Notes under the pieces: model-generated
Told to the model about the DNA's origin: nothing
Databases searched by the model: none
What the model saw: the letters and a program-made list of their open reading frames with translations, nothing else
Shown here: positions 4,217 through 52,355 of the stretch, piece after piece
How the letters are laid out: every line of letters begins with the position of its first letter
How positions within the stretch are numbered: the stretch's first letter is position 1
Origin: an uncultured Methanosarcinaceae archaeon
GTDB taxonomy: Archaea > Halobacteriota > Methanosarcinia > Methanosarcinales > Methanosarcinaceae
Assembly (NCBI GenBank): GCA_963847185.1
Contig: CAWJYV010000008.1
Location: 960,001 to 1,024,000, forward strand
Direction of reading: 5' to 3'
Length of the DNA: 64,000 bases
Translations under genes and position numbers: made by a program

Positions 4217-4738
4217 ATGGGTAAACGAACTCGGATTATTAACGATCCTTCCTATCTAGTGCCATTGCTCAGGACTTTTGGGTCAAGAACTCACAAAAGA
4301 ATATTCGATGCACTTTCAAACAAATGGATGACTAGGCTGGAAATAGACGAGTTTATAGGCTCAGACTCATCAAAAAGCCTTCATATTCTCAAAAAAGCCG
4401 GACTCCTTGAAAGTCAGTGGAGAGTTCCCGAGGCAGGCCAGAAGCCTTCCAAAGAATATCATAGTTCTTATTCCAAGGTTCAGGTTAACTTCCAGTGTTC
4501 TTTTGAAGATCTGAGCGATATTATTATGCTGACCTTCAAACCATATGAAGAGGTCAAAGATGCGATAGAAGAGCTGGAAAGGCTGGTAGAAGAAGGCAAT
4601 ACTTCCATGAGTAACCTCACGCGGACTCTTAATAAGAATCCGTTCTATATCTGTGCTGTTGCCAGACGGTCTGAAAGGCTTTCCGTAATGGGGCAGAGAT
4701 TAAAATTAATTGAAGATGTAGAGGAGAATTACGATTGA
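4217..4738 (+). CDS. ArsR-like HTH transcriptional regulator (methanogen-conserved)
   Basis: RBS GGAGAGGAG before ATG 4217; wHTH-like LHILKKAGLLESQWRVP; its stop overlaps the next start. Confidence 0.75.
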   Translation: MGKRTRIINDPSYLVPLLRTFGSRTHKRIFDALSNKWMTRLEIDEFIGSDSSKSLHILKKAGLLESQWRVPEAGQKPSKEYHSSYSKVQVNFQCSFEDLSDIIMLTFKPYEEVKDAIEELERLVEEGNTSMSNLTRTLNKNPFYICAVARRSERLSVMGQRLKLIEDVEENYD

Positions 4739-22986: not shown

Positions 22987-23455
22987 AAGGAAAACAAAAG
23001 GAGCAGAAAAGGAAATGTAATTGCTCTAAAGCTTATCACATGGAATCTTGACTCGAACGTTCAGGTAGATTTTTATGTAGGTAGATTTTGATATCAGATG
23101 GATTTTGAAGTTCTCTGGCTATATGGATTTTAAAGTTTAACCAAATTAAGCTGGAATGTAAAAAGGTAGATTCTAATGTGTGTCTTTATGAATTTATAGG
23201 CATATTTTTGATTGCTATTTTTTACTATTTCCTTTGCCAAAAAGTTACTCATGGATGAAGATTTCTGAATTATGATCATTTTTGCAGGTATACTTCTTTT
23301 CAGATTTATTTCCGGTAACTGAAGGGTCTGATAAAGCGCAGAAAAATAAATTACTGTATGAAAAATAAATGTGCTGGCAGACAAATATTTATAATAAGTA
23401 TCGGTAGTTTATATTGAGGTAAAAACGTAAAAGTACTTTATAGTGGGGGAGAAGT

Positions 23456-35115: not shown

Positions 35116-35397
35116 TTTTTTGATTTAGTTTTCGTTCACTTTTATTGTTTACATAGACTAAGTCTTAGAGATGTAGTTTTGTTTTTGGTTCAGAGGCTTA
35201 AATATTCTGTGTTTTGTTTTCGTTATTATGCTTCTTTATTAATACTTGAAGTACTTCTAGTGCCTGAGGTGACGGGATTTTTAAGTTACTACTTCAAATG
35301 GCGTTAGGATAGACAGGAGCAAAACCTTTTTACATATGGAAAAAATTAGAACATAAACAGTTAATAATGAGTTCCTTTTTTATTGGTATGGTTTAAG

Positions 35398-37233
35398 ATG
35401 ACGTTGGCAATCGAATGGGCTGAAAAATACCGCCCCCAGAGCCTCAAAGATATTATTGGGAACAAGAAGGCAGTGCAGGATCTGAAGACCTGGGCTGAGG
35501 AATGGCTTTCAGGAATTCCTGAGAAAAGGGCAGTCATTCTCCATGGGTCTGCAGGCGTAGGGAAGACTTCAAGTGTTCACGCTCTTGCCCGGGATCTGGG
35601 CTGGGAAGTGATAGAGCTCAACGCAAGTGATCAGAGGACTGCAGGGGTTATTGAAAGGATCGCAGGATCTGCAGCTTCTATGAGTACTTTTTTCGGAGGA
35701 AAGCGCCTGATCATTCTGGATGAGGCTGACAACATCCACGGGAGTGCAGACAGAGGCGGAATGCGGGCGATTGCAGGACTTATAAAAACTACACTTCAGC
35801 CGATGGTTCTGATTGCAAATGACATCTATGGGCTAACTCCTACTATTCGGAATCTCTGCCTGGAAATCAAGTTCGGATCCATTCAGAGCCGTTCAATGAT
35901 TCCAGTTTTGAAAAAGGTATGCGAGAATGAAGGAGTCCTTTGCAGTCCGGATGCAATCCAGCAGATTGCAGAAAATGCAGGTGGAGACTTGCGAAGTGCA
36001 ATGAATGATCTTCAGGCTTCAGCCAGTGGAAAGGAAGTACTGGAGCTAGAAGATATTAGTACTTCAGGCAGGGATGTCAAAGAAAACATTTTCAAGGCAA
36101 TGCAAAGGATATTCAAGAGCACTGATTGTAAAAAAGCTCTTGGAGTAGCAATCGAACTTGATGAGAGTCCTGAGGATCTTGTGCACTGGATCGATGAAAA
36201 CCTTCCCATCCAGTATGCCAGCAAAGAAGGTGACCTGGGAGACATAAGGACAGGTTTTGAGTTTCTCTCTAAGGCTGACCTCTATCTTGGTCGCGTAAAG
36301 AAACGCCAGAACTATCGGATGTGGAGATATGCCAGCATGCTGATGGTCTGTGGAGCTGTGATTTCAAAGACGAAATCCTACCCCGGATTTATTAAATATC
36401 AGCAGCCTTCTCTCTGGCGGAGGCTTGGACAGACGCGTTCGAAGCGAGACCTGAGGGATAATGTTTCTTCTAAAATTGGTGAGCACAGCTTTGAATCTAT
36501 CCGTTATTCAAGAAATAATCTCCTGAGGCTTTACTCCTGCATGGTAAAGGATGAAAAGACTGCAATTGAAGTTACTGCATTTCTCGGACTTGAACTCGAG
36601 GAATTGATCTACCTTTCCGGAAGTACCAAGCCCAGTAAAAAACTACAGAAAATCTATGATGAAGCGCAGGAACTGCTTCGAGAAGGAAAAGACGATGAAG
36701 AAGAACAGGGTTTCTTCAAGATTCCGGTTTCATCTGAAGATCGCAAACAGGTAACTTTTTGTTCCATAATCCAACGTCCCGAAGAACCAGAGAAAAAAAA
36801 TTCAGATAGTTCTGAGAATTCTGATTTTCGGCTTTCTGAGGGCAAGCAGAGGACCTTCAACTTCAATCTTGATGTTTCTTCTGAGATGTCGGGAGAAAAA
36901 GAGATTTCCGAAAGTAATACACCTGATTCCGTTGTATCTAATCCTCTTTTATCTGATATGCTGGCGTCTGATAGTCCCAAATCTCTGGGAAATAAAGTCT
37001 CCTATCCTTCTGAGCCTCTTGAGAAACAAGCTTTTCTCGGCTCTGAAACCTTGGATGAAAAAGTCTCTTCTGAGCCTCTAAAACAGAAGATGCCTGCAAA
37101 TGATGAACCTGCGGACAATAAGTCTGATATTATTGAGGCCCCGGAACCCAAGTCCTCAGATTTTGAAGTCGAAGCCTCGGGAACTCCTAAAAAAGCCGAA
37201 TTGAAAACTCAAAAAACACTCTTCGATTTCTAA
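35398..37233 (+). CDS. rfcL: Replication factor C large subunit
   Basis: [25 protein letters not shown] and ILDEADN motifs; C-terminal PIP box QKTLFDF. Confidence 0.95.
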
Positions 37234-37429
37234 TTTTTTATTTCCTCATTTCTAAATAAATTGTTCTTCTCTAATTGTAGTATCTGTAATTATGTTTTAT
37301 TTCTAATTTATTATTTTTTTCTTTTCCTTTAATATTTGATACAAAAAGTTTTGAAATATACTCTAAAGAATATTCTACTGATCCTATCCATAATCTTTAC
37401 CTGAATAGATTCTGAATACACAAGAATTT

Positions 37430-37510
37430 ATGTGAGCGGATTGACGGGGTTAATAATAAAATAGTCTTAGTGTATATTGGGAATTGGGGACTGGGTCCCG
37501 CTCACATGAA
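37430..37510 (-). ncRNA. Candidate small RNA, copy A (stem plus C-rich loop)
   Basis: ATGTGAGCGG/CCGCTCACAT 10-bp stem; minus-strand TATA CTTATAAG at 37527-37534. Confidence 0.55.
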
Positions 37511-37584
37511 CCACTTTGTAATTTTTCTTATAAGGATTTTTCCACTTTTTAGTGCTTATTCAATGACGGAGTCCTTACAGATAA

Positions 37585-37690
37585 GACAAATTCTTAACAA
37601 ATGAAGTAATTCAAACAAGTAAAATAAATTCTAAGTAAGCAGGATAAATTTCTAACAAATAAGATAAATTCTAAGTAAGTGGGATAATTC
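37585..37690. repeat. Degenerate 19-20 bp tandem repeat
   Basis: Units such as ATAAATTCTAAGTAAGCAGG, ATAAATTTCTAACAAATAAG and ATAAATTCTAAGTAAGTGGG. Confidence 0.55.
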
Positions 37691-37724
37691 GCAGAAAAGT
37701 TGTGAAGACGAAAACAAGGAGTTT

Positions 37725-37822
37725 GTGAGCGGGTTAGGAGAGTTTTGGGGGAATATTGGGGGAATAGTTGGGGGGATATGGGTTTGGGGTTATACTATGG
37801 AAAAGAGACCCGCTCACTCGAC
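37725..37822 (-). ncRNA. Candidate small RNA, copy B (stem plus C-rich loop)
   Basis: GTGAGCGGGT/ACCCGCTCAC stem enclosing five G-runs on + (CCCCCAA repeats on -); minus-strand TATA TATTTATACC at 37839-37848. Confidence 0.6.
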
Positions 37823-38004
37823 ATGAGTACTTATTTATGGTATAAATAGTTTTTTCTTTTATTCGTTTTAATTTATAATTAAGGCTTTATTTGTACAAAT
37901 CAATTGTTTGACATAAAGGTTTCCTTAATTTTGGTTTAAAATCGATAGTTAATATGCAGGATTTACAGCACCGCAAAAAATTATTATTCTTAGAGAAAAT
38001 GGGA

Positions 38005-38080
38005 TGAGCGGGTTGGGGAGTATGAATTGGGGGTGTTGGGGGGTTGGGGTTATCTAACAAAAGAGAGACCCGCTCACAAG
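38005..38080 (-). ncRNA. Candidate small RNA, copy C (stem plus C-rich loop)
   Basis: TGAGCGGGT/ACCCGCTCA stem with four G-runs in the loop; minus-strand TATA TATTTATATC at 38100-38109. Confidence 0.6.
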
Positions 38081-38222
38081 TATTACATCATGCTAGTCAG
38101 ATATAAATATATTTTGCTTGAATTTTTTTGAATAAACACTTTCGGAAGTCTCTATGTAAGAGGAAAACAAACCTTTTTTAAAACGAGGGTAATTTCGTTC
38201 CCTTTCTTATTCTCCTCTATGG

Positions 38223-38281
38223 CAGAGAGTTCTGATTATATTAGAGAGTCTCGATTATTTCGGGGAGTTTTGATTATATCT
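38223..38281. repeat. Three 19-bp direct repeats upstream of tRNA-Val
   Basis: GAGAGTTCTGATTATATTA / GAGAGTCTCGATTATTTCG / GGGAGTTTTGATTATATCT. Confidence 0.5.
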
Positions 38282-38396
38282 GCAAATTAGTCAGTTCTTT
38301 TTTGACAGTTTGTCGCTAACAAAAGACATATATATAACTAGTTACATTTTGGAGTTGCATTTGGAGCATTCCTGCAAATGTGCACAGCGGCAAAAT

Positions 38397-38470
38397 GGGC
38401 TCGTGGTCTAGTCGGTTATGACATCGCCTTTACACGGCGGGGATCCTGAGTTCGAATCTCAGCGGGCCCA
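38397..38470 (+). tRNA. tRNA-Val(TAC)
   Basis: Acceptor stem GGGCTCG/CGGGCCC-A, D arm GGTCTAGTCGGTTATGAC, anticodon arm TCGCC-TTTACAC-GGCGG, T arm CTGAG-TTCGAAT-CTCAG; TATA at about 38328-38337. Confidence 0.97.
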
Positions 38471-38763
38471 CTCTCTTTATTATCCTTCTTTTCTAATTTT
38501 AAGTGCTTATTGAGCTTCTTTTCTAATGCTTCGACTCTTGCTTCAAGGTCAGATTTTACTTCTGGTTGTGCAACTTTAAGTTCACAGTTAATATTTTCTT
38601 CAAGGGAAATTACATACACAGGTTTACCATTATATTCTGTTTTGAAAATATGGGCAGTTTCTCCAGCAACACTCACTTCAGATTTCGGTAGCCTTACTAA
38701 AGGATATGTAATATGTGATTTTACATTATGTTTCATGACTTTAGACTTGCCTAATAGCTTCAT
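38416..38763 (-). mobile_element. Probable N-terminal fragment of a split (SSV1/pTN3-type) integrase overlapping the tRNA 3' half
   Basis: The ORF reads antisense into the tRNA (…GPAEIRTQDPRRVKAMS*), the arrangement produced when attP lies inside the integrase gene. Confidence 0.6.
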
Positions 38764-39710
38764 TTTTTGACCTCTAATCTTTAGAGGCACCGGAGAAAAG
38801 AAACTATGGTAGATTTCTAATAGTGTCTGATCGCGAGCAGTTTCATAGTTGTTTGATCCTATTCAATTTGAAATTAGATATACGATTTTTTTATTTCAGC
38901 TTCTATTCATGATAGCAATCTTTTGTCCTAAAATATTACTATTTCTACTTTTAAGGCCTATTTGGCAATATGTTGAATTTTCTGTAAATCACAAATCTCA
39001 AAAGTTTCTGGGAATAAAATACCGCTACATAAGAACTTAATTCCATGTGGCGAGGAAAATGTTGATTTCAAATTTACAGCAAATTTGCGACACTTACTTA
39101 GAACTACAAAACTGAAATATTAGTTGATAAAAATGGTACAAAATTAAATTCAGTGATACTTTTGACCCAGTCTATTACTAACCAGTGAAAACAGACAAAA
39201 CGTAATCAAAGATCGATAATTATTGAAAAAATTCGAAGTTGAAGTACAAAACTGGGTTACGCGTATGTAAGATATAACCAAAAATAAAAGAAATTAACAA
39301 AATGAAAGAATTTTGGGATAAAACACTTAATTCTTTCATATCTAAATTTTTTGGACATTTCTTCTTCATATATATATCTTTGTATATCCTTCTTTTTGTT
39401 TGCTACTCATTTTTTGTATCTATTCTTCTTCAAGTATCGGATTTTTTTTAAAAAGGCTCAGTTGGATGTGTTTCTCTATCTTCCCCTGACTGTAGACTCT
39501 TTTTCTTTAAAGACAATTGAGAATTTAGTAACTATAATTTTTTTTCTTTATAACTTATCATTTTATATCTCAATGATATGGTTATATAGAAAGGAAAACG
39601 ATAAAGGATTAGAATCTTTGTTACCGATAAAAAAATATGCTTTAAAATCTTTTTAAAGTGTTATTTCTTACAAAGATTATTTTTTTAACTACCGTGGGGG
39701 AGGAGTAAGT

Positions 39711-39938
39711 ATTAAGAGAAGGAGCAGGACTGATATTGCAGTTGATATTTTACGAGTTGCAATGAATGGAGCAAAGAAAACACATATTGTATACGAAGTA
39801 AATCTGAATTTTAATATTGCTCAGAAATACTTGGAAATGCTTAAAGATAAAGAACTTATTAAGCATGAAAACGGACTTTTCATTACTACTGATAAAGGAA
39901 AAGTGTTCCAGGAAATGGCTAAAGAACTTAAGCTTTAA
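39711..39938 (+). CDS. Small winged-HTH protein (COG3432/HTH_45-like) with apparent ATT start; not in the ORF track
   Basis: (I/M)KRRSRTDIAVDILRVAMNGAKKTHIVYEVNLNFNIAQKYLEMLKDKELIKHENGLFITTDKGKVFQEMAKELKL*; RBS GGAGGAG 5 nt upstream. Confidence 0.8.
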   Translation: MKRRSRTDIAVDILRVAMNGAKKTHIVYEVNLNFNIAQKYLEMLKDKELIKHENGLFITTDKGKVFQEMAKELKL

Positions 39939-40849
39939 GTCCCTTTCTTGCAACTTTTCTACTTTTTCCCATTTTTCTGATTTTTTATGAAAAAGAAACT
40001 TAAAAGGCATCCTTAACAATGTTTCTGATTATTCATGCGTTCCCGTATATATAAATGAAGTTTTGAAACATATCTATTATGGTGAAGGCCCTTCTTTTAA
40101 ATTACACATTAAGAAAACCGCACAGGATTTCGAATGCTGGTGCCTTCATTGACAAAGCTATTGATATTTTATGAGATTTTGGGATTGAAAATGAAATAAT
40201 GAGGGGTATGGATGATAGTGCAGCCTTTGGGATCTTTTCAGATGAAGGGGAAGGCGATAAATGACCTTTGATTCTTGAAAATAATAAAAGCTTACAATAT
40301 TATTATTATTATACCGGTTCCTATTATGGGTTAGTGTACTCTCTTCTGCGGCGAAAATGGTATTTAAGAGGCTGGGTGTAGTTTACATGAAGATATATCT
40401 TAAAACAGGAAAATATTCCCCTTACGGAAAGACCGCAGGAGTTATTGTTGCCAGAAATGAAGAAGTGGGCATGATATCTATTCACCCATAGTCTTCAACC
40501 TCACTTATCCAGGCTGTGCCGTACCTCTAAATGTTGACTGTTATCGGGTTGGTTATGCGGGCTCAGGTCTAAGTTTTCTCGAAACAGGAGGCAACAGAAA
40601 TTTCTCTATATATTGGACAGTATGATGTATGATGCCCAATCTGGTGCACTTGGCAAAGTCTGTCAAAGAAAAATCTATCCTACAAACTAGAAAAGGCTTG
40701 ATGAGAATGAAAAAAAGGCAGAGGCTGAAGCTGACCAGCTAAAGCCACCGCTTTAATTTTTTAAAAATTATTTCGTACTTTCGTTCTGTAATTGGGGATA
40801 TTATTTAACTGACTGGATAAGACTATGATATAATGAAAGGGGGTATTGT

Positions 40850-51836: not shown

Positions 51837-52355
51837 TTGTCCACATCCCCTGACATATCTAAATAATTCATACATATATGATTTTTAGACGATTTGATTT
51901 TTAATTTAGGTTATTGTTTTTTGTATCTACTTTCCATCGACGGATCCATTGTGAAAGTATCATTTTTCAGCTAGTATCTTAATTCAGTTCTGAAGACTAT
52001 AGTATCAGTGAATTTTATATTCATTTTATGCGCCGATGAAAATGATTCGTAATTGTATCACTAGATTATTATTCATAGGTAAATATAATACAAATAGAAA
52101 TAATAATTAGGATTTAAATACGCTAATTATATTTAACAAGTCTATCCAAAGCAATTTTTATTCCAATAAAGGATCGAACTCATATAGCTAAGACGAAAAA
52201 TTGTGGCATTTAAATTTACCATGCTTTATTTTTATACCTTGAGTGCATAAGTTCTATGGAATTAGAACGATACCTTAAGGTCAAAATCTATCGAATTCCA
52301 TCTTTCATTTTGGAACTGGGTCATTGGAAAGCAACTGTGTTTTATGGGGGAAATA

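Follow-up and report, generated by a model that had tools for sequence, protein, structure and literature searches.

A multi-copy family of small non-coding RNA genes with helix-closed, C-rich loops across the order Methanosarcinales

The DNA analyzed here is a 64,000-nt stretch (hereafter, the window) from an uncultured Methanosarcinaceae archaeon (GenBank assembly GCA_963847185.1, contig CAWJYV010000008.1, positions 960,001 to 1,024,000 of the forward strand). It contains a 1.16-kb gap, between the gene for the large subunit of replication factor C (RFC) and tRNA-Val(UAC), that is occupied by three similar units designated A, B and C. All three encode small non-coding RNAs (sRNAs) of about 75-125 nt and are paralogues within a multi-copy, order-wide family. 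The features of the locus are listed below in window positions; the arms are those of the helix that closes each unit, and the outer limits of the sRNA genes are predicted.

35383-37233, plus strand: RFC large-subunit open reading frame (ORF), 616 aa
37405-37510, minus strand: sRNA gene A; 5' arm 37497-37507, 3' arm 37431-37439
37527-37534, minus strand: TATA-like box of A, CTTATAAG, 19 nt upstream of the stem
37707-37820, minus strand: sRNA gene B; 5' arm 37808-37818, 3' arm 37724-37734
37840-37849, minus strand: TATA box of B, CTATTTATAC, about 22 nt from the stem
37975-38080, minus strand: sRNA gene C; 5' arm 38067-38078, 3' arm 38004-38014
38100-38112, minus strand: TATA box of C, ATATATTTATATC, about 22 nt from the stem
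38397-38471, plus strand: tRNA-Val(UAC), divergent beside unit C

Units A (37431-37507), B (37724-37818) and C (38004-38078) start 293 and 280 bp apart and have a common closing stem, (G)UGAGCGG(G)/(C)CCGCUCA(C). The enclosed 56-75 nt have, on the minus strand, a C fraction of 0.32-0.43 and a G fraction of about 0.1, and the plus-strand loops fit G-quadruplex (G4) motifs. The loop of B is 75 nt long and unpaired, and carries a UCUCUUUU tract followed by repeated CCCCCAAYUAUU units. That of C reads UCUCUCUUUU...AACCCCAACCCCCCAACACCCCCAAUUCAUACUCCCCAA, and A, the most diverged paralogue, has a less C-rich loop. The pattern TGAGCGG-N40-70-CCGCTCA matches the window twice (A and C) and is absent from 100 shuffles; B falls outside this count, its loop being longer than the gap allowed. 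Similarly, GACCCGCTCAC with at most one mismatch occurs four times in the window, compared with a shuffle mean of 0.30, and none of 100 shuffles reaches four.

Minus-strand TATA-like boxes sit 19-25 nt upstream of all three stems. The box of A is weak in this genome, and other species have the stronger ATTTATAA. An A-rich stretch resembling a TFB recognition element (BRE) lies upstream of the B box, which is present in all 17 orthologues shown, and the stretch aagcaaaat-ATATTTATA upstream of the C box is kept in most of 14 orthologues. On the 3' side of the stems, B has a U-run, GUUUUC, at 37710-37715 and C has U-runs at 37996-37999 and 37975-37980; A has no clear U-run after the stem, so that its 3' end is uncertain. 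These features agree with a preliminary description of this DNA, which had reported three stem-closed units about 280-310 bp apart, quoted the minus-strand loop of B exactly as it reads and assigned a minus-strand TATA box to each copy (placed there at 37527-34, 37839-48 and 38100-09). It had also counted four copies, but the window holds only three, and the further copies lie elsewhere in the genome. Separately, the A-B spacer contains a 38-40 nt tandem direct repeat, 87% identical (37610-37687), located 80-150 nt upstream of the A promoter on the minus strand; this repeat may bind a regulator or be a remnant.

A search with patterns and scripts covered the entire assembly (4.04 Mb in 10 contigs, 99.8% complete). 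Four same-stem genes were found outside the window: D and E, in tandem on contig 5; F, on the window's contig, 243 kb upstream; and G, on contig 7. One pair of the F stem is U-G, and the G stem has C-G in place of a U-A pair. A covariance model built from 27 sequences, designated R1, finds exactly these seven genes (A-G) at E values of at most 4.8e-7, and the next match has an E value of 0.078. The three window copies score 42.3 bits (A, E 4.6e-7), 69.2 bits (B, E 4.4e-14) and 78.4 bits (C, E 1.8e-16).

A second subfamily of six genes surfaced in a complementarity scan that was meant for targets. These genes have the same layout and a different helix, GGCAUCUGG/CCGGAUGCC, and are located on contigs 9, 1 and 6.

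G000:C9, about 1950-2130, 2300-2470, 4300-4470 and 23250-23420, C-rich strand minus: second-subfamily genes
G000:C1, about 152780-152900, and G000:C6, 68810-68885: second-subfamily genes

Their order of elements is a TATA box, a spacer of about 25 nt, a closing helix of 9-12 bp, CUCUUUUU, C-runs such as CCCCCCAACUCCCCAA, the 3' arm and a U-run. Ahead of the TATA box they have a conserved sequence of about 60 nt in common, some members have an inner hairpin, and the surroundings are repeat-rich intergenic DNA. We considered whether contig C9, with four of these genes, could be a plasmid or virus, and rejected this idea: its gene content (aconitase family, nucleotidase, histidine-kinase ATPase) looks chromosomal. 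In all 13 genes of the genome (seven plus six), the promoter is on the C-rich strand.

D and E (L001:1520-1545 and L001:1860-1885; G000:C5) have internal GGAG(G)...C(C)UCC pairing, in which one side is Shine-Dalgarno (SD)-like and the other anti-SD-like. The pairing of D forms in the minimum-energy fold, and that of E was read from the sequence; in both, it could mask part of the gene's own C-rich sites. Two identical AUCCUUCCCAAAAU repeats stand at the end of E.

Model R1 was then the means of following the family through related genomes, a scan that the preliminary description had proposed for Methanosarcina genomes. It matches 126 of the 151 genomes of the order, 84 of the 95 high-quality genomes and 21 of the 23 genera, in counts where related genomes are not independent and where copies may be hidden in incomplete assemblies. 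By family, matches occur in 48/48 (own family), 19/20, 16/27, 37/48, 0/1 and 5/6 genomes, typically with 1-7 matches per genome. A further sample, drawn from the phylum as a whole, comprised 151 genomes: the 15 from the own family all match, whereas only two of the 136 other genomes have matches, both weak (E 6e-5 and 2e-4), and the remaining 134 have none. The family is much larger and older than could be seen in the window.

Outside the genus Methanosarcina, the RNA takes a short form of 55-80 nt with the core consensus GUGAGCGGG - (a/u)CUCUUUUUU - AA - CCCC(C)ACUCCC - spacer - ACCCCCACUCCCCAA - CCCGCUCAC. Among Methanosarcina members, F resembles this form most closely, and its loop, spacers included, is near-identical throughout the genus. 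B and C keep the same frame but with repeated CCCCCAAYUAUU or CCCCAA units in variable number, and hairpin lengths among orthologues are 72-101 nt for B (17 orthologues), 66-74 nt for C and 70-73 nt for F. The core motif CCCCCACUCCCC is kept across genera. The A/B/C trio adjoins tRNA-Val in eight of nine loci examined, a second genus included, and this constant position supports vertical descent. The likeness of the CCCCAA repeats to the ciliate telomerase template was also considered and set aside as a coincidence of composition; nothing telomere-related was seen.

The closing helix is supported by covariation. Among 74 distinct sequences, at least 98% of cells at the nine core pairs are paired, and in five of these pairs both partners have changed in a compensatory manner, e.g., from A-U or from U-A to C-G. 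The observed covariation was reached by none of 500 column shuffles, and sliding the partner by 1-3 columns lowers pairing to 24-52%. Three outer pairs are formed in about half of the sequences, and the helix reaches 12-13 bp in many genera. Six core helix positions hardly ever vary; these give no support for the helix, but suggest sequence-specific recognition. The strongest sign that pairing itself is selected is the second subfamily, since its helix has an unrelated sequence. Minus-strand folding energies are modest (z-scores of -1.18 for A, -3.23 for B and -0.63 for C), and because of this the case for structure rests on covariation. F, G, D and E fold with z-scores of -5.2 to -6.7 and leave the C-runs unpaired, and the second-subfamily genes fold as expected. 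Loops are unpaired in both minimum-energy and centroid folds, and in the minimum-energy folds of B and C this applies to the whole loop.

Strand assignment comes from the promoters. Among 83 non-identical copies, TTTATATA with at most one mismatch is found upstream of the 5' arm in 43 on the C-rich strand, compared with nine on the G-rich strand, and in 41 of the 43 matching copies the box is 21-33 nt from the 5' arm. The box and the A-rich stretch upstream of it are the best conserved flanking feature in orthologue alignments, and both the box and its distance are kept in the B, C and F orthologues as well as in further families of the order. Downstream T-runs do not tell the strands apart (54 vs 46 of 83).

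RNA-library contigs of relatives cover B and C, although such contigs show neither strand, ends nor level, and parts without contig coverage carry no meaning. In the RNA run of an isolate related to this organism, contigs of 78 nt (depth 21) and 347 nt (depth 10) lie over parts of B and C, compared with a depth of 135 for tRNA-Val. Unit C is covered over 38004-38120; among metatranscriptomes, one has contigs over C, another over the B loop, and a third over the A-B and B-C spacers.

The units do not encode a conserved peptide. Orthologues differ by indels of 1-2 nt within the loop, and no reading frame is therefore conserved, in agreement with the earlier statement that the copies have no frame in common. 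One could still picture leaderless mRNAs for small proline-rich peptides that begin with a GUG at the first stem base, and in B this GUG does open a 27-codon frame; the same frame stops after seven codons in C, orthologue loops keep no frame across their indels and none is common to the paralogues, so that we regard this idea as barely credible. A, B and C are real, independently promoted non-coding RNA genes. The preliminary description had suggested a paralogous sRNA family displaying single-stranded C-rich motifs, and the covariation, the TATA boxes on the C-rich strand and the order-wide conservation uphold this suggestion.

Within the loop, a conserved U-tract, CUCUUUU(UU), is followed by one to five C-runs, with the core CCCCCACUCCCC(AA) and, in most members, CUCC. 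Among the 83 copies, 72 have four or more U residues in a row within the first 30 nt of the loop and 67 have CUCC in the loop. Archaeal Sm proteins bind oligo(U), and the genome contains two LSM genes; the U-tract is a possible Sm-protein site. A G+C-rich helix that locks the ends, a long open loop, a U-tract and C-runs with CUCC would together suit a stable RNA whose C-rich sites are kept single-stranded.

In this genome, the 16S rRNA has the 3' end GGAUCACCUCCU, and the SD signal before start codons is GGAGG(U)GA. Positions -20 to -3 are enriched in G-run pentamers (GGGGG, 64 vs 10; AGGGG, 89 vs 11). For these reasons, the family motifs can pair with ribosome binding sites (RBSs). Of 2598 initiation regions, 13.2% pair with the F motif at -10 kcal/mol or lower, compared with 4.8% of upstream regions and 7.5% of regions inside genes, and these values match those of the 16S tail in the same test (13.5, 3.4 and 4.9%). 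Near-copies of the 16S tail occur in the family itself: of the 17 out-of-genus members, three have a 3' tail that includes ACCUCCU, and D contains AUCACCCCUCC. In the acetyl-CoA decarbonylase/synthase (ACDS) operon, the sites of cdhB (GGGGG) and cdhE (GGGGGUG) are, owing to their G-runs, among the top 1-16% for most family members, and those of cdhC, cooC and cdhD are mostly not high-ranking, in a ranking that leaves out cdhA.

Three G-run leaders in the window had been named earlier as possible partners of the loops. Two of them, at 52345 and 23444, indeed precede by 3-5 nt the ATG of ORFs of 52 and 135 aa, but the third, at about 39696, has no start of an ORF of at least 50 aa within 20 nt. 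The seed-and-extend target search mainly returned further family members read antisense, and the best match of F close to an ATG lies within a topoisomerase-like ORF. A separate observation concerns a gene 3-4 kb beyond the window end (G000:C8:1027162-1028226, minus strand), which encodes a secreted-looking protein of 354 aa composed almost entirely of Gly/Ser repeats of the GGASGG type. Its RBS region, AUAUGGGGAGUG, is a 12-nt perfect complement of F.

The gene structure, conservation, covariation and pairing capacity described above were computed here. In the model that we propose from these sequences, an archaeal TATA/BRE promoter on the C-rich strand serves each gene separately, and transcription would start at or a few nt before a terminal helix of 9-13 bp with the core GAGCGG/CCGCUC. 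This helix ties the 5' and 3' ends together, presents an unpaired loop of 35-100 nt and is followed by a U-run, and it may stabilize the RNA against exonucleases. The C-runs would then act as anti-SD-like seeds on G-rich sites (GGGGG, GGGGAG, GGAGG) of several mRNAs, including internal operon sites; pairing at RBSs would block translation initiation, and the U-tract may recruit an Sm-like protein. Pairing of the C-runs with G-rich SD regions, with repression of translation, is the most likely function, and we give it about an even chance of being correct. It is rated highest because of the pairing capacity and the precedents in Methanosarcina mazei and Staphylococcus aureus.

Several findings weigh against this proposal. 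A reversed F motif pairs with 13.1% of initiation regions, compared with 13.2% for the real one, so that the pairing signal reflects C-richness and not the conserved sequence. No long, specific and clearly conserved target emerged from seed-and-extend searches, from complements of the 11-mer core or from complements of at least 9 nt at start codons, and the best extended matches lie inside coding regions or at the Gly/Ser-repeat gene described above. The near-invariance of CCCCCACUCCCC and of GAGCGG/CCGCUC across the order exceeds what loose SD pairing would need, and a protein partner may explain it as well. With regard to the transcripts, folding z-scores of A and C are weak and one RNA contig also spans the A-B spacer. 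Since contigs cannot show strand, we infer transcript strand and ends from the promoters. In addition, a T5-T8 run lies 10-25 nt after the start; it could act as an archaeal terminator and might attenuate transcription.

The preliminary description had left the choice between a multivalent protein sponge and anti-RBS regulators, and our pairing calculation bears on both: the C-runs are predicted to pair with about 13% of initiation regions, and the reversed motif does so equally. A sponge would be a decoy that, by the logic of CsrB/RsmZ, titrates a protein binding C-rich or anti-SD sequences, e.g., a KH-domain factor at the 16S 3' end, with no pairing to mRNAs. Such a decoy fits the constancy of the motif, the helix and the F loop at least as well as SD pairing does. 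Across the order, CCCCCACUCCCC and the core of the helix hardly change, and within the genus the entire F loop, with its spacers, is near-identical. The loops are multivalent, the repeat units of B expand and contract (hairpin 72-101 nt), the sequence-specific part of the motif brings no pairing advantage at initiation regions and some members have 16S-tail-like 3' ends. However, no candidate partner protein was found: the neighbors are the RFC large subunit, tRNA-Val and Cdc48, with no conserved neighboring protein gene seen, and the Pfam model of CsrA has no match in this 99.8%-complete genome, whereas control genomes do match. The documented archaeal precedents, as far as the cited accounts reach, are base-pairing sRNAs (PMC5867862, PMC6560208). 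On balance, we consider a decoy less likely than SD pairing, but the main rival to it and a serious one.

A reading at the DNA level, in which the units are a mobile element resembling a miniature inverted-repeat transposable element (MITE) or a plus-strand G-quadruplex DNA and no functional RNA is made, would account for the terminal inverted repeats of 9-13 bp, the several copies per genome and the G4-fitting plus-strand loops. We judge it very improbable. The trio remains beside tRNA-Val in eight of nine loci, another genus included, copy number is low (seven plus six), the flanks extend the helix with no direct target duplications, pairing is kept by compensatory changes and a strand-specific promoter stands at a fixed distance. 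Among the 115 viral contigs listed for the stem pattern, there is no family-like copy; these contigs lack a C-rich loop, and their stem-pattern matches are due to chance, mostly in high-GC DNA. A match to a described Rfam family, named in the preliminary description as evidence against its reading, was likewise not found.

A broader possibility combines elements of both RNA-level proposals. An ancient order-wide 'anti-Shine-Dalgarno mimic' system would comprise more than 10 genes per genome for stable, end-locked RNAs with 16S-tail-like C-rich copies, which would act globally and either compete with the ribosome for the G-run class of RBSs as a whole or decoy a factor that reads the 16S 3' end. 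We think this quite doubtful. If it were true, it would constitute a layer of translational control with no described archaeal counterpart, in which copy number and condition-specific promoters (cold, nitrogen) might provide the tuning.

Other observations were made in the course of these searches. At G000:C4 (about 165730-165830) and G000:C10 (about 712950-713050), a paralogous hairpin, AACCCAGGCA...UGCCUGGGUU, adjoins six to seven tandem GGGTTT units; the opposite strand reads (AAACCC)n downstream of a AATATATATT box. These loci may represent another kind of C-rich repeat RNA. Pattern matches on G000:C10 (about 747000-793000) revealed several stretches far more G+C-rich than the contig average of 0.41, which may be a foreign island or a mis-binned piece. 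In the RFC large-subunit ORF (35383-37233), the best-scoring Pfam stretches are all within the first ~240 residues, and the downstream part has short direct repeats, including a 13-nt CTTCTGAGCCTCT that occurs twice.

The preliminary description did not recognize a named family, and Rfam 15 indeed contains no match. A search of window positions 36000-40000 at E values up to 10 returned only tRNA-Val and, elsewhere, chance-level matches, and the loci of D, E, F, G and two out-of-genus members gave no match at E values up to 1. Archaeal C/D box sRNAs have the consensus C box RUGAUGA and D box CUGA, together with a k-turn; membership in this class was rejected, as no boxes are visible in the unit sequences and no Rfam snoRNA matches the units. 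The stem sequence, used as literature text, retrieved unrelated primers only. Full-text searches of the literature consulted found no description of C-rich stem-closed sRNAs in Methanosarcina or archaea. It is very likely that members are already numbered in the differential RNA sequencing catalogues of M. mazei and Methanolobus; one of them might be M. mazei sRNA41 or one of nine cold-induced sRNAs of Methanolobus psychrophilus.

To our knowledge, very few archaeal sRNAs have a known mechanism. The present family is found in 21 of the 23 sampled genera of an order that holds the main acetate- and methyl-using methanogens and their methane-oxidizing relatives. It has up to 13 genes per genome, its architecture is simple, and Rfam does not contain it. 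With the covariance model it can at least be annotated in hundreds of genomes and in metatranscriptomes. If the C-runs mask G-run sites, the family would provide a regulon-wide translational switch in organisms of the methane cycle and would have converged with the C-rich sRNAs of Gram-positive bacteria.

The closest functional parallel is with these bacterial RNAs. According to the part of the literature consulted, RsaE/RoxS, RNAIII and other Rsa RNAs of S. aureus have one or several unpaired C-rich motifs in their most conserved part (UCCC there; CCCC or CUCC here). Their unpaired C-rich boxes bind SD sequences and block initiation, and the structured ends of C-rich sRNAs in Firmicutes are thought to give stability (PMC2790875), which resembles the arrangement seen here. 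The archaeal family differs from RsaE/RoxS in belonging to another domain of life, with no sequence or Rfam relationship. It also differs from the Firmicutes RNAs in having one terminal helix that ties the ends together, an almost invariant core, an archaeal TATA box, U-run termination, a U-tract, up to five C-runs per RNA and 13 genes per genome, and pairing with targets is here a prediction only. CsrB/RsmZ RNAs are similar in that one short motif is repeated on a small stable RNA and varies in number between species; in those RNAs, however, GGA motifs stand in many hairpin loops, whereas the family has C-rich sites in one large open loop, and CsrA, the protein partner, has no counterpart detectable by its Pfam model in this genome.

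Among archaea, the relevant comparison is with M. mazei sRNA41, sRNA162 and sRNA154, which, in the accounts drawn on here, come from the same organism group, are intergenic and mask RBSs. RBS masking is the mode reported there for the three M. mazei sRNAs studied so far (PMC5867862, PMC6560208), and in the case of sRNA41 several RBSs within the polycistronic ACDS mRNA are masked (PMC5867862, PMC6560208, PMC4152357). The ACDS operon of the present genome has internal G-run sites that rank high for the family, a possible parallel to sRNA41, and the consulted passages on M. mazei sRNAs describe no multi-copy, order-wide C-rich family. In M. psychrophilus, which belongs to the same family of organisms, nine highly conserved cold-induced intergenic sRNAs are reported with a common motif upstream of their promoters (PMC5378194, as far as consulted); the ~60 nt common to the second subfamily upstream of its TATA box offers a lead in that direction and nothing firmer. 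Most archaeal sRNAs are described in a review as poorly conserved, many of them not even within a genus (PMC4152357). Against this background, the family is best described as one of C-rich, probably RBS-directed regulatory sRNAs, set apart by an end-locking helix, multivalency, copy number and a breadth of conservation unusual for archaeal sRNAs.

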